Shown: positions 34,327 to 52,934 of the stretch, piece after piece | Layout: each line of letters starts with the position of its first letter | How positions within the stretch are numbered: the first letter of the stretch is position 1 | From: an uncultured Bacilli bacterium | Lineage (GTDB): Bacteria > Bacillota_I > Bacilli_A > RF39 > UBA660 | Direction: 5' to 3' | Assembly (NCBI GenBank): GCA_934098735.1 | Contig: CAKOOS010000004.1 | Span: 6,044 to 70,043 of the forward strand | Length of the DNA: 64,000 nt | The notes under the pieces: generated by a model | The model's input: the letters and a program-made list of their open reading frames with translations, nothing else | The model's database searches: none | Told to the model about the DNA's origin: nothing | Translations under genes and position numbers: made by a program

Positions 34327-34426
34327 AACTTCTCCCTTTAATTAATTATATCACGCCTAGATTTATAAATTAAGTATTATTTACAATGTTTTAATTATTT
34401 TGGTTATACTAATAATGGTGATATAG

Positions 34427-35071: not shown

Positions 35072-35137
35072 CTATTTATTTGACAAACATAAAATATAAT
35101 GATAAAATTTGGAAGTAAACGAAAAGGAGTGAGAATA

Positions 35138-35308: not shown

Positions 35309-35396
35309 TTAAATAAAGCAACTTTTTTTGTATATTATTTTATTTACTGTATATAATATTAGTATCAAGGAAGAATTATTTCCTTGATTATATAAA

Positions 35397-35430
35397 TCGA
35401 CGGGATTATTTATTCTCCCGTCTTTTTTAT
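35397..35430. terminator. Rho-independent terminator GACGGGA-loop-TCCCGTC followed by a T run, after rpmB
   Basis: Read from the sequence. Confidence 0.6.
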
Positions 35431-36512: not shown

Positions 36513-36568
36513 AATATCCCCCCATAAAAAAGTATGAAAAAAAAGAAGCATATATTACTATATACTTC

Positions 36569-37561
36569 TTATAACCAAACACCGTAAGTGATAGCAGCCA
36601 TTGCTAAAATAAACCCTATTACCCAAAACATTTTTATAATATCTTGTTCTTCCCATCCTAATTCTTCAAAGTGATGATGAAGTGGTGCTTTTAAAAATAC
36701 TTTTTTATTGAAATAGCGAATAGCTATTATTTGAATTAAACTACTAAGAGTTTCTACTACAAATACTCCACCAATAATAGCAAGAGAAACTTCATGTCTA
36801 GAAACAATAGCAATACTAGCTAAAGCTCCCCCTAAAGCTAAAGAGCCTAAATCTCCCATGAATATTCGAGCTGGATGAGTATTAAAAACTAAAAATCCTA
36901 CTAAAGCCCCAACTAATAAAAAACAAAAAATAGCAATTTCTTGATAGCCTTCTAGCCAACCGGCATTCCAACTAATAACTCCGTAAGCAAAAAAGGCAAT
37001 TGCTGATAAACCACCAGCCAAACCATCTAAGCCGTCAGTAATATTTACAGCATTTGTTGTTCCGACAAGTAAAAATAAAATAAATAATCCAAATGTCCAT
37101 CCTAAGTTAATATATACATTTAAGAATGATATGCTAAGTACTGGCTCTCCGCCGCCTTTCATAAATAAATAAAAGAAAACTAAAGCTATAATCATTTGGA
37201 CTAGAAATTTTGTTACTAGACTAATACCATTATTATTATGGTATTTTACTTTTAAAAAATCATCAACAAATCCAAGTAAACCATAAGCTAAGAAAACAAA
37301 TACGACGATAATTAAATTATAACTTATGGATATACTCCCTTTAATATAAAGTAATATTAAGGATACGATTACGGGAATGATGAAAATAATTCCTCCCATT
37401 GTTGGAGTTCCTTCTTTTTTTAAATGTCTTTCGCTTATTAATTTACTAACTGATTGGCCTAGATGCATTTTTTTAAAAAGAGGAACAACTATTAATCCTG
37501 TAATTAAAGATAAAATAAAGCCTAACATTAAAGCCATTGCAGCTTTAGCTAAAATTAGCAT
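36569..37561 (-). CDS. mraY: Phospho-N-acetylmuramoyl-pentapeptide transferase
   Basis: MraY motifs (NAVNITDGLDGLA, HHHFE). Confidence 0.9.
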   Translation of the reverse strand: MLILAKAAMALMLGFILSLITGLIVVPLFKKMHLGQSVSKLISERHLKKEGTPTMGGIIFIIPVIVSLILLYIKGSISISYNLIIVVFVFLAYGLLGFVDDFLKVKYHNNNGISLVTKFLVQMIIALVFFYLFMKGGGEPVLSISFLNVYINLGWTFGLFILFLLVGTTNAVNITDGLDGLAGGLSAIAFFAYGVISWNAGWLEGYQEIAIFCFLLVGALVGFLVFNTHPARIFMGDLGSLALGGALASIAIVSRHEVSLAIIGGVFVVETLSSLIQIIAIRYFNKKVFLKAPLHHHFEELGWEEQDIIKMFWVIGFILAMAAITYGVWL

Positions 37562-37638: not shown

Positions 37639-39543
37639 TTAATTAAGCATAACTACTACTGTACCATTTTCTTTAGCATACATTCCTCCACTTGGTGATT
37701 GATAAATTACATTTTCACCAGTACCACTATACTCTATTTTAAAGCCTTTTAAAACCTTTTTAGCTTCATCAACGCTTAAACCTACAACATCAGGTACTGT
37801 AACATATTTTTGATCTAACCAAGTATATTCTTTTGGTATTCCATTTGTATCTGGCTTAATATTTAAAATATCAATTGCACTTAAGAAAATATTTCGGGCA
37901 ATTGGAGCTGCTACAGTGCCCCCGTATTGAACTACCCCTTTTGCATTTTGAACAGCAACATAAACAACAATTTCTGGATCGTCCGCAGGCATAAAGCCTA
38001 TAAATGATAAAATATATTTACTAGATGAATAAACTCCATTTTCAACAGTTTGAGCTGTTCCTGTTTTTCCTCCTATTCGATAATTTTCTATATATGCATT
38101 ATGTCCTGAACCTTTAGCTACAACACTTTCTAAAGCATATTTTACCAAATCAGATGTTTCTTTACTTATGACATTTTTTTCGGCAACTGGTTCATTACTT
38201 TTAATAATTGAATTTGTTTCAGGTTCTAGATAATTTTTAACTATGTATGGTTTGTATAAAGTTCCTCCGTTTACTACAGCACTAACTGCCCTTATTTGCT
38301 GAATTGGCGTTACACTTATTCCTTGTCCAAAAGCTGTTGTTGCAAGTTCTACGTTTCCCATTTTATTTAAAGAAAATAGTATTCCAGAAGCTTCGCCATT
38401 TAAATCTATACCTGTTTTACTTCCAAAGCCAAAGTCTTTAATATAGCCCATCAATTTTTCTTTTTGAAGCATTAATCCTAAATTGACAAATCCTGGGTTA
38501 CAAGAATTTTCAACGACTTCTAAATAAGTTTGATTACCGTGGCCACCATGCTTCCAACAATGAAGTGTTGCTCCGTCAACAGTTATTGCTCCTGTATCTG
38601 TGTAACGATCTTCAAAAATATTAATAAGTTTTTCTTCAATAGCTGATGTTAAAGTAATTATTTTAAATGTTGATCCTGGTTCAAATGTCATCCATATAGG
38701 TAAATTTCTATTTATTACTTCTGTATCATAGTCTTTATATTTATTACTATTAAAATTTGGTCTACTTGACATAGCTAAAATTTCTCCGGTTTTAGGATTC
38801 ATTGCTATGGCCATAACACTATCAGGATTGTATTTGCTAACAACATTATCTAGTTCATTTTCCATGACCAGTTGTAAATCTAAATCAATAGTAAGTTCTA
38901 AAGTTATTCCACTTGTTGGTGCTTCATATATTTCTGCTAAATCAAGTTTATGACCTTTTCCATCTGAAAAATATTTTATTCCTCCATCTTCACCAGTTAA
39001 ATAATCATCATAGTAAAGCTCTAATCCAGATAAGCCCTGATTATCAATACCTACATATCCTAAAACATGACTTAAAAGTGTTTTGTATGGATAGTATCTT
39101 TTACTTTCTTTAACTAAATAAACTCCATCTAATTTTAAAGCATCTATTTTTTCGGCAATTTCATAACTTAGTCCTCTACCCTCTGGATGTACTCTTTCTA
39201 TGGATGTTTTTTTAGAAACATGTTTTAACATATCTTCGTAATCACTATTTAAAATTTCACTTAAACTCTTGGCAGTTTTTTCTTTATCTTTAATTTGATT
39301 AGGAATTACTACTAAACTTGTAGTTGTAATATTAGTAGCTAGTTCTTTTCCATTTCTATCTACGATTTTGCCTCGATCAGCAGAAATAGGAAGCTGTCTA
39401 CTCCATAAAGACTCAGCAAGTGTATTTAGTTTTTTATAAGAAAATACCTGAATATAAAATACTCTACCAATTGCTATTACTAAAATTAAAATTACAATCA
39501 AAAAAACATATCTAATTCTTGTGTGTATATTATTATAAAACAT
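37639..39543 (-). CDS. spoVD: Class B penicillin-binding protein, SpoVD/PBP2B-like, with one C-terminal PASTA domain. The start is the internal MFYNN, preceded by GAGGG; the upstream ATG at 39591 lies inside a terminator hairpin.
   Basis: Transpeptidase motifs SxxK (STFK), SxN and KTGT, plus a PASTA domain. Confidence 0.8.
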   Translation of the reverse strand: MFYNNIHTRIRYVFLIVILILVIAIGRVFYIQVFSYKKLNTLAESLWSRQLPISADRGKIVDRNGKELATNITTTSLVVIPNQIKDKEKTAKSLSEILNSDYEDMLKHVSKKTSIERVHPEGRGLSYEIAEKIDALKLDGVYLVKESKRYYPYKTLLSHVLGYVGIDNQGLSGLELYYDDYLTGEDGGIKYFSDGKGHKLDLAEIYEAPTSGITLELTIDLDLQLVMENELDNVVSKYNPDSVMAIAMNPKTGEILAMSSRPNFNSNKYKDYDTEVINRNLPIWMTFEPGSTFKIITLTSAIEEKLINIFEDRYTDTGAITVDGATLHCWKHGGHGNQTYLEVVENSCNPGFVNLGLMLQKEKLMGYIKDFGFGSKTGIDLNGEASGILFSLNKMGNVELATTAFGQGISVTPIQQIRAVSAVVNGGTLYKPYIVKNYLEPETNSIIKSNEPVAEKNVISKETSDLVKYALESVVAKGSGHNAYIENYRIGGKTGTAQTVENGVYSSSKYILSFIGFMPADDPEIVVYVAVQNAKGVVQYGGTVAAPIARNIFLSAIDILNIKPDTNGIPKEYTWLDQKYVTVPDVVGLSVDEAKKVLKGFKIEYSGTGENVIYQSPSGGMYAKENGTVVVMLN

Positions 39544-39750
39544 ATTATCCCTCGAATAATTATATGTTTTATTAAAATTAAAAAAAACCATTTTATTTAA
39601 AATGGCTCATTTAATGAATTATGTTTACTTTTTTGTTTTCCATCTTGTCATGCCAATAATTACTTGATTCAATAGTTTTATAAATTAATAATTTTTTAAA
39701 GTGCTACTTTTCCACTATAGTCTATTATTTAAATACAATTTTTAATTTTT

Positions 39751-40218
39751 TTAGTATAATTTTAAATTCCATCTTAATTTTTCATCTTGATTTTCATTTT
39801 CTTCATATACCATTTCATTAATTTCTTCATTTTTAAAAACTTCTAATAATTTATCAAAATCATCTGCAAGTTTTGTATTTTTTAGTTCATCTTCGTCTAT
39901 CCAATATATTTTACCTTCCGACGTTTCCGAAATAATATCACCACTATAATCATCTGATGTAAATAAAATAATTAATTGTCTTTCTTTTTCCTTTTTGTCA
40001 TACCAATCTTTGACTCCGCATATTTTAACAGAATTTAATTTTAATCCAGTTTCTTCATATACTTCTCTTTTAACTGAAGGAACAATACTTTCTCCTAGTT
40101 CTATTTTTCCTCCTGGAAAAGCAACACCTTTCCAACTTTTTATTCTTTCTTGTACTAATACTTTTTTTGTAGTTGGATCAATAATTTTGCACATATTCAT
40201 TAATTTTACATTTTCCAT
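39751..40218 (-). CDS. NUDIX hydrolase
   Basis: NUDIX box GGKIELGESIVPSVKREVYEETGL. Confidence 0.7.
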   Translation of the reverse strand: MENVKLMNMCKIIDPTTKKVLVQERIKSWKGVAFPGGKIELGESIVPSVKREVYEETGLKLNSVKICGVKDWYDKKEKERQLIILFTSDDYSGDIISETSEGKIYWIDEDELKNTKLADDFDKLLEVFKNEEINEMVYEENENQDEKLRWNLKLY

Positions 40219-40470
40219 TTTTTCTCCTTTTTTGTTTTAATATTAAAAAGAGGTTCTAAAAAAGAACCTCCTCCTCCAAATTAAATTCAAACTACATAAT
40301 ATAACAACTTTTGTTTATTTTAACATTCTCGCTCAATTATGTCAACACACATTATAAAAAAACATAGTTATTAATTTTAATTATCTCAACAAATAAATTG
40401 TCAAATCTATAATTTTAATAATGTTGAGATTGTGTAATTTATATTTTGTTTATGAAAAATTTAGAAATAA

Positions 40471-40872
40471 TTAAGTATTTATCCCATTAGACTGAAAATA
40501 CACTCCAACATCATTAGCAAGTAATTCTTGTGTATATTTGATACTATCAGATAAATTTCTAGAAAATCTAGAAACTTCTTTTGTAACTATTAAATCAAAA
40601 TAGCTAGATTTAGCATCATCAATCATTTGTAAAAATTTTTTTCTTCGTTTAACAGTGCTACCGCTAATACCTTCATCTATGTAACCATTTTACAAACTTC
40701 ATCATATTGTTGTTCAGTTATTACACCTTGATCATATAATTTTTTATTTATTATTAATTCATATTCAAGGATTGTTATTCTTGGAGTTTCAAATATATAA
40801 AAATGCCTCCACTAATGGAAGTGTATGATTTTAAGATAAATCTAATTACTGATTGTATTTTATTTGACATTT
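40471..40872 (-). pseudogene. Remnant of a serine recombinase (resolvase/invertase catalytic domain), frameshifted and truncated. Frame A gives ...ETPRITILEYELIINKKLYDQGVITEQQYDEVCKMVT*. Frame B gives NGYIDEGISGSTVKRRKKFLQMIDDAKSSYFDLIVTKEVSRFSRNLSDSIKYTQELLANDVGVYFQSNGINT*.
   Basis: Hand translation of the minus strand. Frame B matches the resolvase core (D-G-SG ... R-x-x-L ... D-x-V-V-x-x-x-x-R-x-x-R ... GV-x-F). There are stops in all frames upstream, and no C-terminal recombinase or zinc-ribbon domains follow. Confidence 0.55.
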
Positions 40873-40883
40873 TTATTTAATAT

Positions 40884-41294
40884 TTAAAAATATGTTTTTT
40901 TTAATTTTTTTGACATTTTTTCATCATCAACTGAATGTATTGAATGATTTCCTAATTTACAGAAATTTCTTACTTCTTGTTTGATTTTTCTTACTTTGTT
41001 TTCTGTTGAAAAAACATAAAAAAGTTTCACAAAATTAATTTTACTATTAAAACAAGAATTCATTTTATATTTTATTCCTTCCCAATCATTATTGGCATTG
41101 CCAATCCATGACTCTCCTTGATATAAAGTATAGATTAATCTAAATTTTTCTTTTTCGTCTAATTCTTTTTGCTTTTCATCAATAACTATTAAATTGTTTT
41201 TTATTAAATTTTCTATGAATTCCCAATTATCAAAACAAGCTGGAAATAAAACCAACATATAATGTTGCATATTTTTACTATTGTATAATCTCAA
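40884..41294 (-). CDS. Hypothetical protein
   Basis: 136 aa. It overlaps the histidine phosphatase gene by 17 nt. No recognisable motif. Confidence 0.3.
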   Translation of the reverse strand: MRLYNSKNMQHYMLVLFPACFDNWEFIENLIKNNLIVIDEKQKELDEKEKFRLIYTLYQGESWIGNANNDWEGIKYKMNSCFNSKINFVKLFYVFSTENKVRKIKQEVRNFCKLGNHSIHSVDDEKMSKKLKKTYF

Positions 41295-41796
41295 TTATTT
41301 CAGCTGGAGATATACATTCGACTCCAGTTATTGATTGAATTGCCATTTGATGAAAAACAAAAATAATACATTCATAATTACTATATTTCTTAATTACTCC
41401 TTGAATTCTTTTTTTCAAATGTTCTTTTGATTCCCAGTTTACTATTCTATCAACTGGTGGAATACCATTATTTTTAATATAATCTTTATAATATTCTTTC
41501 ATTTCTTTAGCCTTATATTGATATGTATTATCAGGTTCCCACTCTCTCAAATCAGGTTCTATTTTTATATCTAATCCTGTTTCTTTTGATATAATTGCAG
41601 CTGTTTGCAATGCCCTAGTATATGGTGAAGACACAATAAGTGTTGCTTCTTTTAAACGTGGATCTTTAGCTGTCTTTATTACATCTTCAATGTACTCTTC
41701 ACCTAATTTAGCCAAGTCATGTCCATGTCCAATGAAATTATGGGAATCGCCATAACTATAGTCTGCTTTACCATGTCGTATCATAAAAATTTTCAT
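41278..41796 (-). CDS. Histidine phosphatase (phosphoglycerate mutase-like) family protein
   Basis: RHG catalytic motif at the N-terminus (MKIFMIRHGKADYS) and a downstream His. Confidence 0.7.
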   Translation of the reverse strand: MKIFMIRHGKADYSYGDSHNFIGHGHDLAKLGEEYIEDVIKTAKDPRLKEATLIVSSPYTRALQTAAIISKETGLDIKIEPDLREWEPDNTYQYKAKEMKEYYKDYIKNNGIPPVDRIVNWESKEHLKKRIQGVIKKYSNYECIIFVFHQMAIQSITGVECISPAEIIEIIQ

Positions 41797-41845
41797 ATAT
41801 TCATCTCCTTAATTTTAATAGCTTGCATATGTGCTCGCTATCATA

Positions 41846-42379
41846 CTATTTATTTTTTCCAGTTGTGTCAATAAACTCTTTTTGTGATTCTAATGTCATT
41901 ATATCATAAAATTCAAAATCATTTTTAATCCATTTACTTTGTAAAATTTTGTTTCTGTTTAGATTTCTTTTTAACTTTTCACTTGGATCTGCTGTTAAAA
42001 TAAATGTTACATCCGGTTTAATATACCACGTTTGATCTATCATTTCTCTATATATTCTAAGTGCATTATCATAGCCGTTGTATTTACCTAATTTTAAAAA
42101 GGCATAGGAAACCGCCAAAATTGAAAGATAACTTCTTTCCATAAATACTATTTTATCATGTTTCAAAAATGATGATGCTAATATCATTCTCTCTTTCTCT
42201 ATTTCGAAGAAAATTTGTTGATTTTTTAGTTCTTCTTCTATGTTCTTTGATGGTTTTGGTGACAGTGGATGATCCATAAATTCCTCAATTATTTCGACTT
42301 TAGGAATTTTATTCAAAATTTTTGATGTAGTAGTCTTGCCAGAATTAGATGTTTCCTCTATCACATATAAATTTTTCAT
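41846..42379 (-). CDS. Deoxynucleoside kinase family P-loop protein with an atypical Walker A (EETSNSGKTT), an ERS motif (FMERSYLS) and an Arg-rich lid (LKRNLNRNK)
   Basis: The motif arrangement is characteristic of dNK/dCK/dGK-type kinases. Confidence 0.55.
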   Translation of the reverse strand: MKNLYVIEETSNSGKTTTSKILNKIPKVEIIEEFMDHPLSPKPSKNIEEELKNQQIFFEIEKERMILASSFLKHDKIVFMERSYLSILAVSYAFLKLGKYNGYDNALRIYREMIDQTWYIKPDVTFILTADPSEKLKRNLNRNKILQSKWIKNDFEFYDIMTLESQKEFIDTTGKNK

Positions 42380-42508
42380 TATATCACTACCTTTCTGTTT
42401 TATATTTTTTCATTTTAAAATTAAATATGGAATACAAAGGTCCTATATTAGATATAAATGTTGAACAATATATTTAGCCACATTTTAGCACATTAAAAAA
42501 GACTATTG

Positions 42509-44164
42509 CTAGTCTTTTAATAATTCTAAACTAATTTTTCCTTTAAATGTTTTTCCTTGATCATAATTTTGTTCTTCTCCAGTTCCATGTAATGTAAAGG
42601 AAACAGTGTAATTTTGCTTTGTATTAGGAGCTATAGCTACTTTACTTGCTAAGCGGCCACTTGTAAATGGTGCAACACTCCAATCAGCATTAAATCCACT
42701 ATAATTACTTACTACTTTGAACCAGAAATTATTGCTTTCAAAATTATTTTCTACATTAATCCAATCAATATTATAATAAAGAATTTTATCGGTATTATTT
42801 GATACACTAAATTTTATATCAGGTACTTTAGTATTTACATCATCATCTGTTTGGTCATCCGGATATAGATCTGATACTGTTACATTGTTACCATTTTCAA
42901 AAGCCACTACCAAAGCTGCGGCATCAATATTTACATTATTATCTCCAACTGTTGCTTGACCGCCTTTACCTGATGGATCAACTACATACGTACAATTGCG
43001 ATCACATTTACCATCGCCATCATCGTCAATATTAAAATCTGGTTTACCATCTTTATCAGTATCAATATTTAAATCTGGTGTTCCATCACCATTAGTATCG
43101 ATATTTAAATCTGCTTTACCATCACCATCTAAATCTATATTAATATCTGGCCATCCAGCATCATCTAAATCACAGTTTAAATCACAAATTCCATCACCAT
43201 TTTTATCTTGATTTACTTTATTTTTTAAATTTCCATTTTCATCTGGTACATTAAAGGTTGGTTTTTTATTTCCACCATAATCTATTTTTTCATCAGGCTT
43301 TTTATCGCCATTAGTATCACAGTTGACATCACAGATTCCATCACCATCTAAGTCTATATCTAATTCTTTGTCTTTGTTAACCAAATTAGAAATACAATTT
43401 TTATCACATTTACCATCATCATTAGTATCAATATTAATATCTGGAACACCATCGCCATTGGTATCAATATTTAAGTCTGGCTTTTTATCTCCATCCGTAT
43501 CAATATTTAAATCTGCTTTACCATCACCATCTAAATCTATATTAATATCTGGCCATCCATCATCATCAATATCACAGTTTAAATCACATTTGCCATCATT
43601 ATTAGTATCTTGATTTACTTTATTAAATATGCTTCCATCTTTTTTTACTACATTAAATATAGCTTTATTATTTTTCATATAATCGATGTTACGATCTGGT
43701 TTTCTATCATTATTAATATCACAATTGATATCACAAATTCCATCACCATCTAAATCTATATTTAACTCTGGTCTTCCATCATCATCTAGATCTATATTTA
43801 ATTTGGAACTTCTTATATATTTAGCTCCCATGTAAGTTGCAAAGCCACCAATAAATAAAAATGCAAGTAAGAAAAGAATTAATAGCATTCTATTTTTTTC
43901 TTTAAATTTAAAGATTAGTTTATTACCTTCTTTTATAACACATAAACTTTCCGGCAAATAAGTATCATTATCTTTATCATTAAAGACTACATTTAATACT
44001 TTTTCTACTTCTTTATTTGAAACTTTATAATTATCTTCATATATTTTATTTAATGTATCTAATATAAGTTTATCTTGTTCTTTGCTTTTTAAGAGCATAA
44101 ATTCTTTTATATTTATTACTTCTTTATTTTGTTTATACTCCTTCTTAACTTTTTCTTTTGACAT
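42509..44164 (-). CDS. Membrane-anchored protein with many thrombospondin type 3-like calcium-binding repeats (DxDxDGxxDxxC) and a C-terminal beta-rich domain
   Basis: Cytoplasmic N-terminus, one transmembrane helix (LLILFLLAFLFIGGFATYM), then repeats such as NIDLDGDGICDINCD. Confidence 0.6.
   Translation of the reverse strand: MSKEKVKKEYKQNKEVINIKEFMLLKSKEQDKLILDTLNKIYEDNYKVSNKEVEKVLNVVFNDKDNDTYLPESLCVIKEGNKLIFKFKEKNRMLLILFLLAFLFIGGFATYMGAKYIRSSKLNIDLDDDGRPELNIDLDGDGICDINCDINNDRKPDRNIDYMKNNKAIFNVVKKDGSIFNKVNQDTNNDGKCDLNCDIDDDGWPDINIDLDGDGKADLNIDTDGDKKPDLNIDTNGDGVPDINIDTNDDGKCDKNCISNLVNKDKELDIDLDGDGICDVNCDTNGDKKPDEKIDYGGNKKPTFNVPDENGNLKNKVNQDKNGDGICDLNCDLDDAGWPDINIDLDGDGKADLNIDTNGDGTPDLNIDTDKDGKPDFNIDDDGDGKCDRNCTYVVDPSGKGGQATVGDNNVNIDAAALVVAFENGNNVTVSDLYPDDQTDDDVNTKVPDIKFSVSNNTDKILYYNIDWINVENNFESNNFWFKVVSNYSGFNADWSVAPFTSGRLASKVAIAPNTKQNYTVSFTLHGTGEEQNYDQGKTFKGKISLELLKD
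42989..43765. repeat. Two tandem copies of about 400 bp (134 codons) inside the TSP3-repeat gene, each itself built of about 36-45-bp Asp-rich units
   Basis: Protein residues 134-258 and 268-392 are near-identical. The track's antisense ORFs 42996..43211 and 43323..43613 mirror this periodicity. Confidence 0.6.
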
Positions 44165-44177
44165 TTTTATCCCTCAT

Positions 44178-45266
44178 TTACTTTAAAATTGTATAAGCTT
44201 TTTTCTTTTGATGTTCAAAATCATCTAGAAAAGACACTACTGTTTTTCTAATGCTATTCATAGTTTTTTCTTTTCTTTTAGTGGCTCCCTTAAATTCTTT
44301 ATCAATTAATTTTTTAAATTCATTTTCAGTTATATTACTTCCAAAAACAAAATCATTTACTAATTTACTAATAATTGCTGAGTTGTATTCATTTACTTCT
44401 TTTTTATCATCTTTATTTAAAGCCTCATTATTTATAAAAAATGATAAATCATATAATGTTTTAATATTATCATCTTTTACTTCTTCAGTTCTTTTATCAA
44501 TTTGTGTAATTGGCTTAATATTATTCTTTTCAAGATATTCCCAAAGTTCCAATGCTTTAATAAAGTTTGGTTCTTTTAAAATAACATTTGTTTTTCTTAT
44601 AGGGCTTCGAACCGGTGAGCTTTCTTTTAAACTTTTTATAAATGTTGATGATCTAAAAGCTGAGACAATATCCCTTATATGTTCAATTCTTTCATCTAAA
44701 GAATGTCCATCTTTCGATGAATCTACAATTGTTTCTTTTTTACTGCTTAAAGATAATGTAACATTAACTTCTTCATCTTTATTTTTCATTAATCCATTAT
44801 AAGTTACTTCATTATTTACCTTAGCAAAACTTTTTTGATCAGATTCTTCTAATTTATTATTTACAAATATATAAAGATTATCTACTAAAGATTTTATAAA
44901 ACGGTTTTCATATAGGTCAACTGTTTCTTCCCGATAAACATTCAATAATTTTAAAGGAATAACCGTACCATCTTCATGAACTTCTTGAATTAAGTTAGTA
45001 TTTTGAGCCAAATGTCTAATACTTTCTTCAGTTACAACTTTTGCCTTTTCAATTGGTACGATGTTTTCTTCTTGAACAATAAATCTTCTGGGATTACGAA
45101 TTATATTATCTAAATAAGGTATGCACTCTTCAACCATATCAATCCATGATATATCACTTATTTGAGCATCTATATTTCTTTTTATGGTTAAATTAGATGA
45201 AGTTGCCCCGATAAAAGAGGCAGCTTTTTCTTTATTAAAATTATTAATGTATTCTACGATATCCAT
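44178..45266 (-). CDS. Hypothetical protein, third gene of the McrB-like operon. No identifiable nuclease motif.
   Basis: 362 aa. It starts 8 nt after the stop of the GTPase gene. Lys/Glu-rich, with no transmembrane segment. Confidence 0.5.
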   Translation of the reverse strand: MDIVEYINNFNKEKAASFIGATSSNLTIKRNIDAQISDISWIDMVEECIPYLDNIIRNPRRFIVQEENIVPIEKAKVVTEESIRHLAQNTNLIQEVHEDGTVIPLKLLNVYREETVDLYENRFIKSLVDNLYIFVNNKLEESDQKSFAKVNNEVTYNGLMKNKDEEVNVTLSLSSKKETIVDSSKDGHSLDERIEHIRDIVSAFRSSTFIKSLKESSPVRSPIRKTNVILKEPNFIKALELWEYLEKNNIKPITQIDKRTEEVKDDNIKTLYDLSFFINNEALNKDDKKEVNEYNSAIISKLVNDFVFGSNITENEFKKLIDKEFKGATKRKEKTMNSIRKTVVSFLDDFEHQKKKAYTILK

Positions 45267-45274
45267 GTTTTCAC

Positions 45275-46780
45275 CTATATCGTTTTCTTAAGTCTTAGTA
45301 AATAAGCTTTACATTCTGGAGTTTTATTTGCACCAAATAATTTTTCTAAATATTTAATTAATCCATCAATTTCATCTTTAATATATGCTAAATTTAATTG
45401 TTCAAATTTTCTTAAAATTTTATGGGCAATTAGATAATCTATAGCTGCTACTTCTTCTCCTCCACAGGCAACAAATGCTGGAACAAATTCTTTTAATTGT
45501 TTTACTATTCTATTACCAAAAGCTAAACGGAAATGATCAATAACATATCTATCTAGTTGAGCAACTTTTTCTAATGTTTCTTCTGATACTGGATGTTCTT
45601 CAGCAGATTTTTCGAAAAGTGATGATAAATAATTATAGCTTGTTTTAATTTTATCTGTATCTGGTGCTGTAAATTCTTCACACTTATCATCAATTGCAAT
45701 AGGCATTGCTCTATCATAAACTTTATCAGTAATCATAAATGTTGAGTCATCGTTGTTGATTGTACCAATATACCACATATTTTCTGGTATTTTTAGCTTT
45801 CCATCATCTAGTTTCTTAGGATCGTTTGGCCAAACATTTGGAACAAGTTCTACTACCCAGTCTTTCTTGTTAGGTAGTTCCAAGATTGATAACATTTCAG
45901 CAAAATAATATTCTACACGAGATATATTCATTTCATCTAGAAGGGTAATATATACTTCATCGTTATATTCTGCTTCATACATTTTTTCTAATATTTCAGT
46001 TTCGTTAAATTTTTTGGTAAATTCGTTAAAATAACCAAATATTTCTGTTGAATCTCTCCATGATGGTTGAACACTTGCTACAGTTGTTTCATTATCTATA
46101 AATGATCCAAAAGCATAAGCCAATGATGTTTTTCCTGTTCCTGATATACCTTCTAAAATTATTAGCTTATTTGAAGCAAATGAAGCAATAAATAAACGAA
46201 TTAAATTAATATCATAATATAGATGAAGTTTTGATGCTGAATAGTTTCTGAAGCTATCACAAAAACTTTCTAATGTAAATGTATTAGTTATTTCTTCTGG
46301 TTTCATACCATTAAACTTTTCATCAACATTACTTAATTTAAAGAATCTACTTTCTCCTTCTTTTAATTCATTTTTGATACTACCATCTTCATTGTATTCT
46401 ATTTCACCGTTTTGATTTGTTAGTTCACTAATTTTAGAATTTTGTCTTTTTAATTTTAGCACTTCATTATTTAATGATTCTATTTCTTCAATTAACATAT
46501 CTTCTTTTTTAACATTTCTTTTATATCTTATATAAGTTTTAATAGACTTATAAATTAAAAATATTATTAAACCAAATATAATTACCAAAAATATTATTGA
46601 AAATATCATGATAGCTAATCCTGCCCCAGTTAAATCACTTTTATAGTCATTTATAACTGTAATATAGTTAAGAATATTGAACATTTGAAATAATCCTTGT
46701 CCTATTCCTTTAAATATTTTAACAAATCCTTCAAAAAGTGGGGCCATAAATTTTGTAAAAAATTCTCCATACACTTCCAT
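45275..46780 (-). CDS. McrB-family AAA+ GTPase with an N-terminal transmembrane helix and a coiled-coil segment
   Basis: Walker A LILEGISGTGKTS. McrB-specific motifs VQPSWRDSTEIFGYF, LLDEMNISRVEYYFAEMLSILE (compare McrB IIDEINRANLSKVFGE) and WYIGTINNDDSTFMITDKVYDRAMPIAID (compare IIGTMNTADRS...RRF.FI). The transmembrane helix spans residues about 50-78 and the coiled coil about 90-120. Confidence 0.75.
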   Translation of the reverse strand: MEVYGEFFTKFMAPLFEGFVKIFKGIGQGLFQMFNILNYITVINDYKSDLTGAGLAIMIFSIIFLVIIFGLIIFLIYKSIKTYIRYKRNVKKEDMLIEEIESLNNEVLKLKRQNSKISELTNQNGEIEYNEDGSIKNELKEGESRFFKLSNVDEKFNGMKPEEITNTFTLESFCDSFRNYSASKLHLYYDINLIRLFIASFASNKLIILEGISGTGKTSLAYAFGSFIDNETTVASVQPSWRDSTEIFGYFNEFTKKFNETEILEKMYEAEYNDEVYITLLDEMNISRVEYYFAEMLSILELPNKKDWVVELVPNVWPNDPKKLDDGKLKIPENMWYIGTINNDDSTFMITDKVYDRAMPIAIDDKCEEFTAPDTDKIKTSYNYLSSLFEKSAEEHPVSEETLEKVAQLDRYVIDHFRLAFGNRIVKQLKEFVPAFVACGGEEVAAIDYLIAHKILRKFEQLNLAYIKDEIDGLIKYLEKLFGANKTPECKAYLLRLKKTI

Positions 46781-47850
46781 TATAATTCCTCCTTATTCTT
46801 TACAATTAATTTTAAATTCATTTTATCAAAAGCTAACTTGTTATCTAAATTATTATTTATAAATTCTTTATCTACTAGAAGTTCCATATTATTTACAAAT
46901 ATAGTACTTTCAACATTATCTGTTTTTGAAAATTCATAAATAAACTTAACATCTATATCTTTATATTCTTTAATAATATTTTGATATTTTATTTCATCTT
47001 CCCAAGGAATTAAGATTTTAACATATTCTTTAATATATTCATTATCAAAGAATTTAAGCAAACTTGATTTTTTAAAATCTTTATTAACTCTTACAACATA
47101 AGTTGGCATTTCTTTATTACTAATAAGTTCTTTTAAAATATCAAATTCTAATAAACTATAAGATATCTCATTTATTTTACTTGTGTATTCTTTTAAAACT
47201 TCAAGAGCAAGTTTTTCATCAAAATCTGTAATACCTGGTATATTATAAGAAAAATTCACTTCATAATATAATGGATTATTACTAATCATTTTATAATCAT
47301 TGTGATAATTATCAGAATTTAATGCCTCTAGAGCTTTTTTATCTTCATTTGAATTTCTTTTGATTTCATCAAATAAATCATTTATAAAATATTTATTATC
47401 TTTTATAATTAAAATTCTAGTCTTCCTTAAATATGAAAGCAAATACTTAAACTTTGCTTTAGTGTCTTGCAAATCTCCATCTATTATATTAGAAGCAAAA
47501 TCAACGTAACATGCTGTACAAATAATTACTGACATTAAAAATGTTTCATTTTTCCATGTATTAAGCATCTTCATTTGATCATGTTCTTGACAATATGAAA
47601 TAATAGATTTTAAAACAAAGTTTATATTATCATTTGAGTATTCAATGGGATTATCTTTATGAATATTATTTTGAAAGTAATAAGTTTTAGCATATATGCT
47701 TATTATGTCTTTAGCAAAATTTGCAAATTCTTTCTTACTTTTCCACATTTTATTTTCTTCGATTGTAATAATCGACTCTAGTATCTTCGTGTATTCAAGT
47801 AAATCTTTTTCTTTTTTTATCACGTATTTATCGATAACACTTAAACTCAC
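46780..47850 (-). CDS. Hypothetical protein, first gene of the McrB-like operon. GTG start, preceded by a GGTAAGGTGA Shine-Dalgarno.
   Basis: 356 aa. Its stop overlaps the ATG of the GTPase gene (ATGA). No recognisable domain. Confidence 0.5.
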   Translation of the reverse strand: MSLSVIDKYVIKKEKDLLEYTKILESIITIEENKMWKSKKEFANFAKDIISIYAKTYYFQNNIHKDNPIEYSNDNINFVLKSIISYCQEHDQMKMLNTWKNETFLMSVIICTACYVDFASNIIDGDLQDTKAKFKYLLSYLRKTRILIIKDNKYFINDLFDEIKRNSNEDKKALEALNSDNYHNDYKMISNNPLYYEVNFSYNIPGITDFDEKLALEVLKEYTSKINEISYSLLEFDILKELISNKEMPTYVVRVNKDFKKSSLLKFFDNEYIKEYVKILIPWEDEIKYQNIIKEYKDIDVKFIYEFSKTDNVESTIFVNNMELLVDKEFINNNLDNKLAFDKMNLKLIVKNKEEL

Positions 47851-47879
47851 TTCTATGTCACCTTACCTATTCTCTTTAA

Positions 47880-47909
47880 ATTATATCAAACATAAAAATA
47901 GATTGCAAT
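47880..47909 (-). promoter_or_regulatory. Promoter of the three-gene operon: -35 TTGCAA, 17-nt spacer, extended -10 TGATATAAT
   Basis: Read on the minus strand upstream of the GTG start. Confidence 0.35.
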
Positions 47910-48009
47910 AAAGTCTTTTCTTTTTTACAATTTATTTTAAACTGAACTATTTTTAGGTTGCCATTTAAAATTATTTAAGATAGAATTATAATAGAAGGAA
48001 GGAATAAAA

Positions 48010-48825
48010 ATGGAAAACAATTATGATATTGATATAGACGTTTGGAAAGGAAAAGATTTTTCTAAAAAAGCAATAAAGAATAATGATTCTTATCAAGGTA
48101 TTAATTTGGAGCAGGATTATGAAGTACAAGTTCCCGACCTTGAATCTTGGAAAAAAAGAGCTGAACAAAGAAAAGAAGATGCTGATAAACAAAGTTTCTT
48201 AGCTAATGCTTTTAATAATAGTTATAATAAAGCTCCGGTTAAGAATATTCAAACGACAAAAAGAAAACCTCTTAATTTTAAAGTTTTAGCTAAAAAAACT
48301 ATTCTAGTTGTAGCTCTTGGAGCTGGTTTAAAAGTTGGTGTTCCTGCTGTTAAAGATTTTGCTAAAGAAAAAATTGCTATTGAAAAAACTCTTGATACTA
48401 CAACTACTCAATTTGTTGGGTATGATAGTAAAACGCATCAACGCACTTGGGATTATAAAAATTTAAATGAATCTATGAGCGATGTACTTAATAAAAACAA
48501 AGAATATGATATTGATACAAGAATATATGGTTTTTATGAAGGACTAGAAGCATATCATAAAGATGAATATATGGATAAGCTTTTTAATTGGTTAAATCAA
48601 GTTGTAAGTAGTAATACAAATAATTTTACACCAGAGGAAATAAATGCATGTTGTCATGAAACTTTTCAAGAATACTTAGACAGCAAAGGATTATCTAAAA
48701 AAGATTATATAACTGTTATGAATAAAATAATTAATGCTTATGCTAATGAAGGCGTAGCAGAAGATAAAGTTGAAGATCTTTTAGCAAAACTTAATGAAAA
48801 TACCTTAAACGGAGGTGCAAGATAA
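48010..48825 (+). CDS. Hypothetical single-pass membrane protein, divergent from the McrB-like operon
   Basis: 271 aa with a transmembrane segment ILVVALGAGLKVGVPAV and an AGGAAGGA Shine-Dalgarno. Confidence 0.4.
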   Translation: MENNYDIDIDVWKGKDFSKKAIKNNDSYQGINLEQDYEVQVPDLESWKKRAEQRKEDADKQSFLANAFNNSYNKAPVKNIQTTKRKPLNFKVLAKKTILVVALGAGLKVGVPAVKDFAKEKIAIEKTLDTTTTQFVGYDSKTHQRTWDYKNLNESMSDVLNKNKEYDIDTRIYGFYEGLEAYHKDEYMDKLFNWLNQVVSSNTNNFTPEEINACCHETFQEYLDSKGLSKKDYITVMNKIINAYANEGVAEDKVEDLLAKLNENTLNGGAR

Positions 48826-49061
48826 TGGAAGAAGTAGATGTTATAACTTTAAATGATGGTGATTACATTATAACTGATGAAATTGATATTAATAATGTAA
48901 AATATTATTATTTAACTAAAGAAGATGATATTGCTAAATTTTGTATTAGAAAAATAAATATTATAAATAATGAGAAGTATTTAGTTAGTTTAGATAGTCA
49001 GGAAGAATTTGATAAAGCTTTACTTAGTTTTATTGAAAAAAATAAAGATATTGCAAAATAA
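48825..49061 (+). CDS. DUF1292-like small acidic protein, paralog of 54344..54610. Its start is overlapped by the upstream stop.
   Basis: VITLNDGDYIITDEI...KYYYL...LVSLDSQEEFDKAL resembles the DUF1292 pattern. Confidence 0.45.
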   Translation: MEEVDVITLNDGDYIITDEIDINNVKYYYLTKEDDIAKFCIRKINIINNEKYLVSLDSQEEFDKALLSFIEKNKDIAK

Positions 49062-49098
49062 AAAAGAAATTTGTAAAACGCAAATTTCTTTTTTATTT
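49061..49098. terminator. Bidirectional terminator AGAAATTTG-loop-CAAATTTCT flanked by A and T runs, at the island boundary
   Basis: Read from the sequence. Confidence 0.5.
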
Positions 49099-51195
49099 AT
49101 TTAATTCAACACTTAAAACAGTATTTTCTTTATCAATTATTGTTCCAGGGGCAATACTCTGGCTTGTTACATATCCATATCCCGAGTACTCCAATTTTAT
49201 ACCTAAAAGATTAGCAAATGTCTCAACTTCGTTAAGACTCCAGCCTTGTAAATTTTCCATTGCATATTCTGTAGCATTTGTTAGAAGAAATACTTTCCCT
49301 CCAGATAAAATGGTTTTGTTTTTTAATGGGTATTGATTTGTTATATATTTACCATTACCAAGAACTATAGCATTTATTTTATTTTCTTTTAAAGTATTTG
49401 TGACAAATTCTGTTTCTTTACTAATATAATTATCCAAAGTAATTAATTTTGTTTTATCTACATCTGTTTTGGTTTCGGTTAGTTTTGCATAACTTGCTAT
49501 TTCCTCAACTGCTGTTGTAATTACTCTAGCCCATGATCCTAAATTTGTTTCTGGTTTTTTTCCAACTACATAAACTATATATTTTGGATCATCTGTTGGA
49601 AATATGCCAGCAAAAGATTTTATGTAATCATAAGTTCCACTTAAATATCCGCCACTAGGTGATGCTATTTGGGCTGTACCTGTTTTCCCCATGATGCTCA
49701 CATTATTTACTTGCCATACTTTATTTACTTCAATAACCTTTTTCATTAGTTCTTGCATTTTAGAAACAGTTGAACTACTATAAACTTTTTCAACTACTTC
49801 TCTTCCACCCTTATAAGTTATATTTCCATCTTGATCTACTATTTTATCTACTATATAAGGTTTTATTGTTGAGCCATTATTTGTCATCGAACTTAAGGCT
49901 TCCAGCATTTGAATTGGAGTAATACTTACACCTTGACCAAATGATGCATTAGAAAGTTCTGATTGATATCTAAAACTTATATCTCCTTTTGCTTCATTGG
50001 ATAATTCTATTCCTGTTTTTTGACCAAAACCAAGATTATTATAATAGTTAGTAAGTTTATTTACACCAAGTCTTAAAGCTAAAATGGTAGCTGCAACATT
50101 TGAAGAATGAGCAAATCCTAAATCAAAGTCTATTTCACCCCATCCACTTCGAGTTGCATCCCTAATAATGGTTCCATCATCTAGAGTATATGAACCTGAT
50201 TTAAAAGTCTCAGCTCCATTATATAGATTTTCTTCAATAGCTGATGCAAAAGAAAATATTTTCATTACAGATCCTGGTTCATATTGGTAACTTACTAAAG
50301 GATTCATATAGCTTTTAATTGTATTAGTATCATTTGGGTTAAAGTTAGGACTTGTACTACTTGCCACAATTGCCCCAGTTTTAGCATCCATTACGGTAAA
50401 CGATGCCCAGTCTGTATTAAAGTCATTTTGCATATTTGATACTGCTTTTTCAGCAATAAGCTGGATATTACTATCAATCGTTAAATATATGTCTGATCCA
50501 TTTTGGGCTTTTTTGGTTTCAGAAGGCGTATTTGGAATTTGATAATTACTTGATGTATATTTTAAATACTTAGTATAACCATTTGTCCCAGATAGTATTT
50601 CATCATAATATCCTTCGATACCTAATTCTCCAGTTAGCTTTCCGTCTTTATTTTCTTTTGCATATCCTACTATATAAGAAGCAAAAGTGGCTTTACTGTA
50701 ATATCTTTTTTTAGAGTTGCTAATAAAGCTTATACCAGGTAATTCTAGTTTTTCTATTTGAGCTTTAACAACTTCTGTTATTCCTCTTCCACCAGGCCCT
50801 AGTTCTACTTGGTAGGCATCTTTATTTAATAATGCAAGTAAACGTTCTTTAGTCATATTTATAATCGGAAATAAAAGTTCTGCTGTTTTTTCTTTATCCA
50901 CTACATGTTTTGGATTGCTGGGATCGGTGGTCCTAGATTCACTTAAGTAGGCAATTACGGTGTAAGAGTTTACTGTCGTAGCAAGTTCTTCACCATTAAC
51001 ATCAAAAATATTTCCACGGCTTGCATATAATGTTTTTTCAACCGTAGCAATTGATGCAGCCTTTTCTTTTAATGATATTCCATCTACTTTGTCACTTAAA
51101 ACGACATAAGAAAGTTTAATAATTATTGCCATAAATAAAAGAGCAACAATTAAAATAATAAATCTTGATACTTTAACAGTTACTCCTTTTTTCAT
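49093..51195 (-). CDS. pbpB: Class B penicillin-binding protein PBP2B/FtsI type with two C-terminal PASTA domains
   Basis: Transpeptidase motifs (SVMK, SSN, KTGT). It follows ftsL in the dcw order. Confidence 0.85.
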   Translation of the reverse strand: MKKGVTVKVSRFIILIVALLFMAIIIKLSYVVLSDKVDGISLKEKAASIATVEKTLYASRGNIFDVNGEELATTVNSYTVIAYLSESRTTDPSNPKHVVDKEKTAELLFPIINMTKERLLALLNKDAYQVELGPGGRGITEVVKAQIEKLELPGISFISNSKKRYYSKATFASYIVGYAKENKDGKLTGELGIEGYYDEILSGTNGYTKYLKYTSSNYQIPNTPSETKKAQNGSDIYLTIDSNIQLIAEKAVSNMQNDFNTDWASFTVMDAKTGAIVASSTSPNFNPNDTNTIKSYMNPLVSYQYEPGSVMKIFSFASAIEENLYNGAETFKSGSYTLDDGTIIRDATRSGWGEIDFDLGFAHSSNVAATILALRLGVNKLTNYYNNLGFGQKTGIELSNEAKGDISFRYQSELSNASFGQGVSITPIQMLEALSSMTNNGSTIKPYIVDKIVDQDGNITYKGGREVVEKVYSSSTVSKMQELMKKVIEVNKVWQVNNVSIMGKTGTAQIASPSGGYLSGTYDYIKSFAGIFPTDDPKYIVYVVGKKPETNLGSWARVITTAVEEIASYAKLTETKTDVDKTKLITLDNYISKETEFVTNTLKENKINAIVLGNGKYITNQYPLKNKTILSGGKVFLLTNATEYAMENLQGWSLNEVETFANLLGIKLEYSGYGYVTSQSIAPGTIIDKENTVLSVELNK

Positions 51196-51215: not shown

Positions 51216-51524
51216 TTAATCAACAGATTTTATATTACTATTATTATACGACAAACCATATTCTTCAGCAACATTTTGAATATTCTCAAGACTAGCCAGT
51301 TCATCAACTTGCATTGACAAACTTTGATTTACTAATTCTTGCTTTTCAATATTTTTTTTGATTTTTTCGACTTCATTATTAGTTTCAGATAAAAGAGATG
51401 ATGTGTAAACATTAAACATTGGTATTGCTAATACTAAAAATAATAGCAATCCATACATCATTTTTTCTCCTTTTAGTAATTTAACTTTTTTACTCTTTTT
51501 AGCCATAAAATCAAATCCTTTCAA
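51216..51524 (-). CDS. ftsL: Cell division protein FtsL
   Basis: Small bitopic protein with a coiled coil, located between rsmH and pbpB. Confidence 0.55.
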   Translation of the reverse strand: MKGFDFMAKKSKKVKLLKGEKMMYGLLLFLVLAIPMFNVYTSSLLSETNNEVEKIKKNIEKQELVNQSLSMQVDELASLENIQNVAEEYGLSYNNSNIKSVD

Positions 51525-52422
51525 TTATTCTTAATTTTGCACTTCTACTTCGAGAATTTTCTTCTAATTCTTCTTCTTTAGGAAGAATTGGTTTTTTATT
51601 TATTAATTTTATTAAAGGTTTATATTCTTCAGGTATTTCAATTAAACCTTTAACAAATTCATCTACTTCGCTATTTTTCTTAAATATATTTTTTACTATT
51701 CTATCTTCTAGTGAGTGAAAAGTTATAACTAATAACCTTCCTCCCTTTTTTAACTTATTTATTGCTTTAGGAAGTATTTCTTCTAAAACTTTTAGTTCTT
51801 GATTTACTTCAATTCTAAGAGCCTGAAATATCTTTCTTTCTGGATGATTCTTGTAAAAATAATTAGCTCCGGTCGCATTTTTTATTGTTTCAACAAGTTC
51901 AAGTGTTGTATTTATATTATCTTTATTATTTTTAACTTTTCGAGCTATTACTTTACTCATCTTTTCTTCTCCATAAGTAAAAAAGATATTAGCTAATTTT
52001 TCTTCACTATAGTTTTCTATTATGTCTTTTGCTGTTATTCCTTTGCTTGACATACGCATATCTAAAGGACCATCATGCATAAAAGAAAAACCTCTTTCTT
52101 GATCATCAATTTGGGGTGAAGAAAAACCTAAATCAAATATTATTCCATCAACAGAATCGATATTGTATTCATTTAATTTTTCGATCATCTGATTAAAATT
52201 AACATTAAATATTTTAAAATTAGAACCTATTTTAGATAGTTCTTCTTCAGAATACATAACAGCCTTAGGGTCTTGATCAAAGCCATATAAAAAACCTTTT
52301 GGAATTCTTTTTAATATTTCTTTAGAATCTCCGGCGTACCCTACGGTGGCATCAACATATATCCCATCTTCTTTAATGTTAAGATTTTCAATTAATTCTT
52401 GTTTTAAAACACTATAATGCAT
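51511..52422 (-). CDS. rsmH: 16S rRNA (cytosine1402-N4)-methyltransferase RsmH. The likely start is MHYSVLKQE.
   Basis: YVDATVGYAGDS SAM motif and DLGFSSPQID. Confidence 0.85.
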   Translation of the reverse strand: MHYSVLKQELIENLNIKEDGIYVDATVGYAGDSKEILKRIPKGFLYGFDQDPKAVMYSEEELSKIGSNFKIFNVNFNQMIEKLNEYNIDSVDGIIFDLGFSSPQIDDQERGFSFMHDGPLDMRMSSKGITAKDIIENYSEEKLANIFFTYGEEKMSKVIARKVKNNKDNINTTLELVETIKNATGANYFYKNHPERKIFQALRIEVNQELKVLEEILPKAINKLKKGGRLLVITFHSLEDRIVKNIFKKNSEVDEFVKGLIEIPEEYKPLIKLINKKPILPKEEELEENSRSRSAKLRIIERI

Positions 52423-52852: not shown

Positions 52853-52934
52853 GTTATCTCCCACTTTCTCCCACAGTATGCCACTGTCTATAATTATAAT
52901 AGCAAATAAAGAAAAAAAAGTAAATATTATTTAT

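Follow-up and report, generated by a model that had tools for sequence, protein, structure and literature searches.

In Bacillus-type division and cell wall (dcw) gene clusters the genes are ordered mraZ-rsmH-ftsL-pbpB-spoVD-murE-mraY. Here we describe a locus in which such a cluster is split, within a stretch of 64,000 nt (hereafter the window) from contig CAKOOS010000004.1 of assembly GCA_934098735.1, an uncultured member of the Bacilli (RF39; UBA660). According to open reading frame (ORF) listing and Pfam scans, 11 ORFs separate the genes of two class B penicillin-binding proteins (PBPs), each with PBP_dimer, Transpeptidase and PASTA domains: the PbpB-like PBP1 (49093-51195, minus strand) and the SpoVD-like PBP2 (37639-39543, minus strand). 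Among these ORFs are an McrB-like NTPase gene and a gene with the McrC N-terminal domain (DUF2357), which form the centre of this report.

The closest described systems to this pair are McrBC and a class derived from it. McrB forms rings, and its GTPase is stimulated by the N-terminal domain of McrC (PMC11090510). Bell et al. (2024, eLife 13:RP94800; PMC11090510) reported a large clade of McrB GTPases that have an NxD motif and a fused domain of the FtsB type, with a transmembrane and a coiled-coil part, and that occur in association with pilus-assembly factors of the signal-peptidase family. The class was named CoCoPALM, was treated as a relative of the CoCoNuT defence systems, and was left for later work (PMC11090510).

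We consider it likely that the stretch between the PBP genes of the window has two layers, a lineage-old CoCoPALM-type block and 2.8 kb of strain-variable serine-recombinase debris. The first layer would comprise a divergent gene pair (hyp271/hyp78) and an operon of four genes (hyp356, the NTPase, the DUF2357 gene and rep551), resident in a low-GC clade of gut Bacilli whose metagenome-assembled genomes (MAGs) are labelled Bacilli, ‘Tenericutes’ or Candidatus Onthocola. The second would stem from small serine-recombinase elements with NUDIX and nucleotide-kinase cargo that integrate into dcw genes (ftsW and PBP2). If so, the DNA that interrupts this famously conserved operon is for the most part old and has been inherited, with mobile debris making up only a third.

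Conserved block downstream of pbpB

The block (42452-49092) accounts for six of the 11 ORFs and for 6.6 of the 9.5 kb. On the plus strand lie hyp78 (48825-49061; small, DUF1292-like and convergent with pbpB) and, in the same orientation, hyp271 (48010-48825; a single-pass membrane protein). The four operon genes follow on the minus strand: hyp356 (46780-47850), the membrane-anchored McrB-like NTPase of 501 aa with an AAA_5 match (45275-46780), the DUF2357 protein of 362 aa (44178-45266), and finally rep551, an Asp-rich repeat protein of 551 aa and bitopic membrane protein (42509-44164).

Every window protein was mapped onto 80 species-level loci around pbpB homologues. Further loci, designated by L numbers like the others, were obtained from exact-protein look-ups and a metagenome scan: L092-L095 and L111, which represent one sister species, L110 and L112. 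The order hyp78, hyp271, hyp356, NTPase, DUF2357, rep551-type gene was found directly after pbpB in at least eight related species. The five close species with enough sequence that carry the block (L002, L003, L004, L005 and L080; PBP1 66-77% identical) all have the six genes in the same order and orientation after pbpB, and the same holds right after pbpB in L092-L095 and L111; in L110 and L112 the order is identical and the contigs stop short of pbpB. What follows the block varies. In L112 the genes PBP2-mraY-ftsW begin 157 bp after the repeat-protein gene, and in L092 four other genes precede PBP2-mraY; a PrsA-like foldase gene lies in the gap between the PBPs of the sister species.

Across species the NTPase is 82-89% identical, compared to 66-77% for PBP1, 71-76% for rsmH and 67-76% for mraZ. 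Against the sister species L092 the values are 88% for the NTPase, 78% for the DUF2357 protein, 75% for PBP1, 76% for rsmH, 70% for mraZ and 84% for PBP2. The block was present in every same-species contig spanning the site. The GC content, GC3 and synonymous-codon likelihood of all inter-PBP ORFs fall within two standard deviations of the 57 window genes. Because the gene order recurs in at least eight species, the composition is native and the NTPase is more conserved than pbpB, 42452-49092 is ancestral to the clade, which would be of genus level, and has most likely been inherited vertically.

A preliminary description of this DNA had read the whole of 39.6-49.1 kb as one accessory island between pbpB and spoVD. 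Its anatomy was borne out by the ORF listing and Pfam, both for the division of the cluster into mraZ-rsmH-ftsL-pbpB and PBP2-mraY-ftsW and for the content and coordinates of the 11 inserted ORFs, among them a NUDIX gene, a recombinase remnant, the McrB-like gene and two divergent genes. Recent acquisition of the entire stretch, as an accessory or defence island, would agree with the presence of a recombinase remnant and defence-flavoured genes, and also with the adjacency of PBP1 and PBP2 in the more distant species L013 and L022, so that the site must once have been empty at some depth of the tree. We nevertheless regard it as highly unlikely, since 6.6 kb are syntenic in at least eight species with an NTPase more conserved than pbpB, the composition is native, neither flanking direct repeats nor a tRNA gene were found, and the strain-level empty site removes only 39643-42451. 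The island interpretation therefore survives for 39643-42451 and fails for 42452-49092. The dcw comparison with relatives that had been suggested did reveal an empty site, in L085, which covers this smaller segment only and keeps the block; the deviation in composition or codon usage that had been looked for across the stretch did not appear. For six of the 11 ORFs, what was found is that relatives share the genes with native composition, the very pattern named beforehand as speaking against an insertion.

The split itself had been called unusual, which does not apply to this lineage. Sequence of at least 3 kb beyond pbpB was available for 61 species loci. The second PBP gene is adjacent in only two of them; it lies 1-6.6 kb away behind unrelated genes in eight, and in the other 51 it is absent from the available downstream DNA (3-10.8 kb). 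By ORF inspection the intervening genes include ABC-transporter-like and alanine-racemase-like genes, and one DUF1292 protein was confirmed by Pfam. In this lineage synteny generally breaks down after pbpB, and unrelated genes collect in the gap.

The three smaller families of the block differ in their rate of change. Orthologues of hyp78 are 43-63% identical in clade species and 39% identical in the more distant L009, at the same site; its DUF1292 match (E 0.019) is under the cut-off, and the sister-species orthologue reaches 24.8 bits against a cut-off of 24. The fastest-evolving member is hyp271 (26-42% identity in related species, same position), which has a hydrophobic segment at residues 96-114 and gave no match in the family scans. 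The hyp356 protein is 46-70% identical in related species, where its gene always immediately precedes that of the NTPase. Its family is restricted to the clade, with only 263 homologues at E<=1e-3, and the AlphaFold2 (AF2) model of the protein has a pLDDT of 54.

The NTPase and its DUF2357 partner

The NTPase aligns to the AAA+ domain of Escherichia coli McrB (E 6.7e-5) over Walker A (GISGTGKT), Walker B (LLDEMN) and the signature motif, INNDDST compared to MNTADRS in E. coli. In 18 sequences down to 32% identity, G339-T340-x-N342-x-D344-x-S346-T347 is invariant and position 345 varies between D, E and Q, so the conserved signature is NxD (N342-x-D344), not NxxD. About 47 N-terminal residues precede a transmembrane helix (approximately 48-78), a basic stretch, a heptad-rich coiled coil and the AAA+ domain; within residues 1-140, an amphipathic stretch, the transmembrane helix and the coiled coil can be distinguished. 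Proteins of the 470-530-aa subfamily keep the transmembrane and coiled-coil N-terminus down to 32% identity. In the NTPase family as a whole (8240 cluster representatives), the C-terminal 360 residues are shared with proteins of 600-870 aa that have other N-termini. The Pfam scan gave no DNA-binding domain match for the NTPase.

The DUF2357 gene starts 9 bp downstream of the NTPase gene, and its product matches PF09823 above the cut-off (E 4e-12) and is 69-78% identical across clade species. No PDDEXK_7 (PF04411) match was obtained at E<=0.01. A long C-terminal helix (314-361) is predicted at low confidence, with no clear coiled-coil insertion, and fold searches with low-confidence AF2 models returned noise only. 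The two genes are adjacent in essentially all of 80 loci with NTPase homologues.

A metagenome scan with the subfamily alignment identified 77 more distant loci, at 47-59% identity, with GC contents of 25-45% in the 13 loci examined. In none of the 77 was a dcw gene found near the NTPase/DUF2357 pair. Genes for SipW-type signal peptidases, with TIGR02228 scores above the cut-off, were present in 66 of them and in all 35 loci of at least 12 kb. A signal of the xxYAWF type was also enriched among the ORFs (51 of 792, compared to 2 of 1197 in control loci); the exported proteins of the distant loci gave no match to the Pfam or NCBIfam TasA/camelysin models. The positionally equivalent gene of the distant loci showed no significant relation to the hyp356 family by hhalign (E 0.066). 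Among the clade neighbours of the window, the repeat-protein gene is followed in L002, L005 and L092 by ORFs with an xTYAYF signal, and L004 has a probable signal peptidase ORF, recognised by sequence motif only.

The DUF2357 partners of the distant loci fall into sharply separated size classes. Long forms measure 683-989 aa over all distant loci, including 686-848 aa in the higher-GC loci L125, L136, L145, L179 and L183 (GC 34-45%), and in the low-GC loci examined the partner measures 367-399 aa. The one long partner that was scanned, from L125, had coiled-coil family matches and no nuclease match.

Judged by its NxD motif, its anchor architecture and its McrC partner, the window pair appears to fit the CoCoPALM class. 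It may be a derivative of McrBC in which a transmembrane helix and a coiled coil anchor an NxD GTPase in the membrane. We infer a GTPase activity, ring formation, a client and a biological role: the NTPase would form a membrane-tethered GTPase ring, switched by the DUF2357 partner. As a nuclease domain could not be detected, this ring would act on proteins of the envelope or on exported proteins and not on DNA. In this clade rep551 is the candidate client, and elsewhere it may be the substrates of SipW.

The rep551 protein has a cytoplasmic N-terminal domain (residues 1-89), a transmembrane helix, a repeat region and a C-terminal beta-rich domain, which makes it a type II membrane protein. It contains 13 calcium-binding-type DxDxDG loops and six CxxxC pairs. 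The earlier label of a TSP3-repeat protein is apt at the level of this motif, and fails in the family search, where no Pfam TSP_3 match appeared even at E 5. Its gene carries a 402-bp tandem duplication at 43001-43769 (1.9 copies, 80% identical) built of 36-bp units. In clade species and in L113, the gene after that of the DUF2357 protein encodes an orthologue of 416-435 aa, and no similarity was found between rep551 and the neighbouring proteins with TasA-like signals in related species. Most related species have a single-unit form of the repeat protein, of 416-419 aa. Several same-species contigs end within or just past the rep551 gene, probably due to the repeat breaking the assemblies.

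A number of observations weigh against a CoCoPALM-type block that is old in the lineage and acts on the envelope. In the literature we found no experimental study of any CoCoPALM system, nor a follow-up paper after its naming. Neither a SipW gene nor an ORF with a TasA-like signal lies in the 64-kb window, so the association with pilus assembly is seen only in the homologous loci. The close species L001 and L006 have other genes after pbpB in place of the block. The NTPase anchor matches DivIC only at E 0.03-0.2 and FtsL_2 at E 0.003, all below threshold. In the DUF2357 protein, D305 and E316-x-K318 are invariant, among close relatives only, and the models are too poor (pLDDT 51-54) to settle whether the C-terminal 110 residues hold a cryptic nuclease fold. 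The NTPase matches the PADLOC model PDC-M26A at 8e-41, only over residues 186-307, and the wider NTPase family occurs on plasmids beside nuclease-bearing DUF2357 proteins.

Some of these points would suit an operon hyp356-NTPase-DUF2357-rep551 that is an active anti-phage system, located in the dcw cluster incidentally and equipped with an NTPase sensor of the McrBC/PDC-M26 type and a non-nuclease effector, for example for membrane-directed abortive infection or the masking of surface receptors. Besides the PADLOC match and the homology to McrB and McrC, this alternative can draw on the treatment of CoCoPALM as a CoCoNuT relative by Bell et al. (PMC11090510) and on the plasmid homologues. The latter are trios of a hypothetical, an AAA and a DUF2357 gene, with DUF2357 proteins of 611-705 aa; that of a Lactiplantibacillus plantarum plasmid (L109) has DUF2357 together with PDDEXK_7 (E 2e-7), and its trio adjoins helicases, a pyrophosphohydrolase and an insertion sequence (IS) element. 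We consider an anti-phage role unlikely, however, as no nuclease domain is detectable, the very strong conservation and the fixed presence in the strains seen would be unusual for defence genes, and the distant lineages link the pair to SipW peptidases and proteins with TasA-type signals, not to defence islands. Neither the DUF2357 protein nor hyp356 matched PDC-M26B or any other PADLOC model, and BLASTP of these two proteins against the plasmid trio proteins gave nothing significant. The pattern of conservation, together with the failure to detect a nuclease domain, led us to reject a pure defence-island reading.

The position of the block might also reflect a part in the divisome or cell-wall programme, in which FtsL, the PBPs or FtsW would be partners of the FtsB-like-anchored NTPase. 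Wherever a clade species has the block, it sits between ftsL-pbpB and PBP2-mraY-ftsW; its NTPase is conserved on a par with dcw genes and has an anchor of FtsB/FtsL-like architecture, with the weak DivIC and FtsL_2 matches given above, and the foldase gene of the sister species occupies the same gap. This alternative is very doubtful. The dcw position is specific to this clade, as none of the 77 distant loci has a dcw neighbour, and for this reason the link to the divisome is weakly supported; moreover, the region after pbpB gathers unrelated genes in general, and the DivIC matches are sub-threshold. Returning to the envelope-directed, CoCoPALM-type interpretation, the conservation of the pair and its place near ftsL and two PBP genes could make the role of a nuclease-less, membrane-anchored McrBC approachable by comparative genomics or heterologous expression.

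Strain-variable segment, integrase elements and transcription units

Contigs encoding an identical PBP2 were aligned to the window for the strain comparison. Three same-species variants were found, all with the left junction at 42451/42452 and collinear with the window down to 42452. In the window itself, in L082 and in L089 the full 39643-42451 is present. L086-L088 lack 40438-42451 and have, in its stead, about 380 bp of a frameshifted ABC-ATPase pseudogene; they retain the NUDIX gene. L085 is without 39643-42451 altogether, and its empty site holds about 49 bp that keep the first ten codons of the same ABC-ATPase gene.

The first part of the variable segment (40438-42451, minus strand) contains a thymidylate-kinase/deoxynucleoside-kinase-like gene (41846-42379; E 1e-5, under the Pfam cut-off), a His_Phos_1 histidine phosphatase gene (41278-41796; E 3e-19), the hypothetical ORF hyp136 (40884-41294) and a recombinase fragment, all on the minus strand. 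This last is a Resolvase N-domain fragment of 51 codons (40471-40626; E 1e-6) covering Resolvase positions 55-105 of 145, within a large-serine-recombinase remnant at about 40471-40694. It is 61-71% identical at the amino acid level to the integrases, 534-546 aa long, that are encoded by the PBP2-splitting elements of L009 and L021, and likewise to the end-truncated integrase of the L022 element.

The second part is a NUDIX cassette (39747-40433, minus strand) consisting of a promoter, a leader hairpin (40245-40275) and the NUDIX coding sequence (39751-40218; E 1e-15). It is 92.3% identical at the nucleotide level to L093-L095 over exactly 40433-39747, and its protein is 97.4% identical to the cargo of the sister-species element, compared to 70-92% for core genes; strain L085 lacks it. 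At the start of the cassette stands an inverted repeat of 9 bp without mismatches (ATCTCAACA at 40430-40422 and TGTTGAGAT at 40391-40383), followed by a sigma-70-like promoter at 40345-40317 (TTGACA, 17 nt, TAAAAT, with TG; an 11/12 match), and the G+C-rich leader hairpin, with a U tract, stands just before the NUDIX ribosome-binding site. To judge from these features, the upstream region looks like an operator and attenuator; the region 40245-40437 had no Rfam match.

In strains without the kinase and phosphatase genes, the repeat-protein gene is followed by a frameshifted fragment from the N-terminal part of a MacB/FtsE-like ABC ATPase (MIELKDICKTYKSKKG...GKSGSGKST), at 9851-9899 in L085, at 8657-9035 in L086 and at equivalent sites in L087 and L088. 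In L046 an intact fused ABC gene lies between the PBP genes and resembles the fragment, by eye only. These remnants and the intact L046 gene indicate that an older transporter gene decayed at the site. We accordingly read 39643-42451 as a decayed mosaic of leftovers from serine-recombinase elements, layered on an older decayed ABC-transporter gene. The accessory part is 2.8 kb only, a mosaic and not a clean insertion. The junctions of the variable segment, which had been proposed as the place to look for att-like repeats, yielded none that convince: at 39643/42451 and 40437/42451 the direct or inverted repeats are AT-rich chance matches. A search of the phage database with the DNA of the variable 2.8 kb gave no match.

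Relatives hold related elements in a more complete state. The ftsW gene of the window contains an unoccupied attB, the imperfect palindrome GTTACAGGTGTAAC at 35514-35527 (approximately codons 342-346). In other strains of the same species an element of 3.9 kb, or of 7.3 kb in L087 and L088, is integrated at this site, with hybrid attL and attR in L085 (14017-14030 and 17922-17935) and in L087 (attR at about 21310). Integration places a stop codon at the crossover, and FtsW thereby loses its last 30 residues, the PFFSYGGSS motif among them. The ftsW elements carry NUDIX and guanylate kinase genes, with or without a methyltransferase gene, a Schlafen-like helicase gene and the gene of a 526-aa integrase.

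PBP2 is interrupted at about codon 365 in L093-L095 of the sister species and intact in L092, a strain of the same species. Three more distant species have elements interrupting PBP2, at 13139-19379 in L009, 14877-22073 in L021 and 4019-15008 in L022. Their integrases measure 534-546 aa where complete, the L022 copy being cut by the contig end, and in L009 and L021 the integrase gene adjoins the displaced 3′ part of the PBP gene. Intact integrase genes of 526-546 aa are present in L085, L087, L088, L009 and L021, and the window keeps a fragment only. Relatives of the intact integrase on viral contigs are only 31-39% identical and uninformative. In these abundant uncultured human-gut Bacilli, small serine-integrase elements land preferentially in the dcw region, and some of them split ftsW or a PBP gene.

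A bolder combination of these observations would have the CoCoPALM-type module domesticated in this reduced-genome lineage as a housekeeping machine for envelope or division, together with rep551 and the PBPs, and, separately, the elements that split ftsW and PBP2 serving as reversible switches. An NTPase motor of restriction ancestry, an FtsB-like-anchored ring with a nuclease-less McrC stalk, would then have been recruited to surface assembly or septation. We deem this improbable.

With regard to transcription, hairpin folding was compared with shuffled sequence (200 shuffles for 49056-49098). The preliminary description had placed terminators at 39581-39606 and 49061-49098, and both fold well against the shuffles (z -3.5 and -8.1/-7.0, respectively). 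The hairpin at 49056-49098, between the convergent pbpB and hyp78 genes, resembles a bidirectional intrinsic terminator, with a dG of -17.6 kcal/mol on the plus and -15.1 kcal/mol on the minus strand, equalled by none of the 200 shuffles. At about 39577-39615 (minus strand), roughly 35 nt upstream of the PBP2 start, lies a terminator-like hairpin with a U8 tail (dG -10.5), which is kept in all three strain variants, including L085 without the variable segment. The doubt raised earlier about the PBP2 start of the ORF track (ATG 39591) was justified, as gene callers of the public contigs begin PBP2 at 39543 (634 aa). A third terminator-like hairpin, at 42494-42518 (minus strand; dG -10.7, z -2.5), overlaps the stop codon of rep551 and marks the end of the conserved block, beside the junction shared by the variants. 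A simple terminator scan that requires three G-C pairs overlooked both end hairpins because their stems are AT-rich. It is reasonable to regard the two as predicted intrinsic terminators, and as such the hairpins would delimit transcription units.

The left flank contains mraZ (52412-52864), rsmH (51511-52479) and ftsL (51216-51524), and PBP2 is followed by mraY (36569-37561) and ftsW (35427-36551), all on the minus strand. Within 31477-37561, the genes downstream of PBP2, mraY and ftsW are rpmB (L28), a CmpB-like gene, dnaE and polC. The cluster is minimal, with no murE/D/G/C and no ftsQ/A/Z genes after ftsW in that interval, which is consistent with a reduced genome. No Rfam family was detected in 35-53 kb and no tRNA gene in 30-58 kb. 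The GC content of the window ranges from 20 to 33%, with 20-31% within the inter-PBP stretch compared to 24-33% in the flanks. The closest public relatives of pbpB are at most 77% identical and come from MAGs labelled ‘uncultured Bacilli’, ‘Tenericutes’ or ‘Mycoplasma’; one NTPase homologue carries the annotation Candidatus Onthocola. A 554-aa ORF at 54612-56276, upstream of DUF1292, NfeD, Band_7 and mraZ genes, has the lowest GC3 of the window (0.08) and no precomputed Pfam match in the public annotation of the same contig.

Comparison with described systems

The variable layer can be set beside the elements mobilised by large serine recombinases, such as skin (SpoIVCA) and the comK phage. 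As with these, the elements of the relatives sit inside host genes with the integrase at one end, and use defined sites in ftsW or PBP2 with attB/attP-like imperfect palindromes; the window retains the 51-codon integrase fragment and a cargo cassette of the same element family. Unlike them, the window remnant lies upstream of PBP2 and not inside it, with no recognisable att sites, the targets are division genes, and the hosts are not known to sporulate.

The flanks share with the Bacillus-type dcw cluster the order mraZ-rsmH-ftsL-pbpB, a second class B PBP, mraY and ftsW on one strand, and depart from it in the 9.5 kb between the PBPs and in the missing mur and ftsA/ftsZ genes thereafter. A further parallel, limited to the distant loci, is with tapA-sipW-tasA of Bacillus: the pair is flanked there by SipW-type (archaeal-type) signal peptidases, and the signals of the exported proteins end in aromatic-Ala-aromatic-Phe, like those of TasA and CalY. 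The Bacillus loci, however, have no McrB/McrC-like genes, and the window has no such SipW/TasA-type genes.

With McrBC of E. coli, the pair shares the AAA+ GTPase core with Walker A, Walker B and an Asn/Asp signature, the DUF2357 N-domain of the partner and the adjacency of the two genes. Here, however, a membrane anchor takes the place of the DNA-binding N-domain of McrB, NxD replaces NxxD, and PD-(D/E)xK is not detectable in the partner. Since neither a nuclease nor a DNA-binding N-domain is detectable, the window pair is not expected to cut modified DNA.

The locus may be best seen as a well-delimited natural example, in stripped-down form, of the barely described CoCoPALM class. Its departures from the published description are the small size of the DUF2357 partner, in which a coiled-coil insertion is not clearly recognisable, the presence of a TSP3-like calcium-binding repeat membrane protein as the last product of the operon, and the location of the block in a dcw cluster with no signal peptidase within 64 kb. 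What it has in common with CoCoPALM is an NxD McrB-like GTPase on a transmembrane and coiled-coil module of FtsB-like architecture, an adjoining McrC (DUF2357) homologue, and 47-59%-identical homologues that sit among SipW-type signal peptidases.

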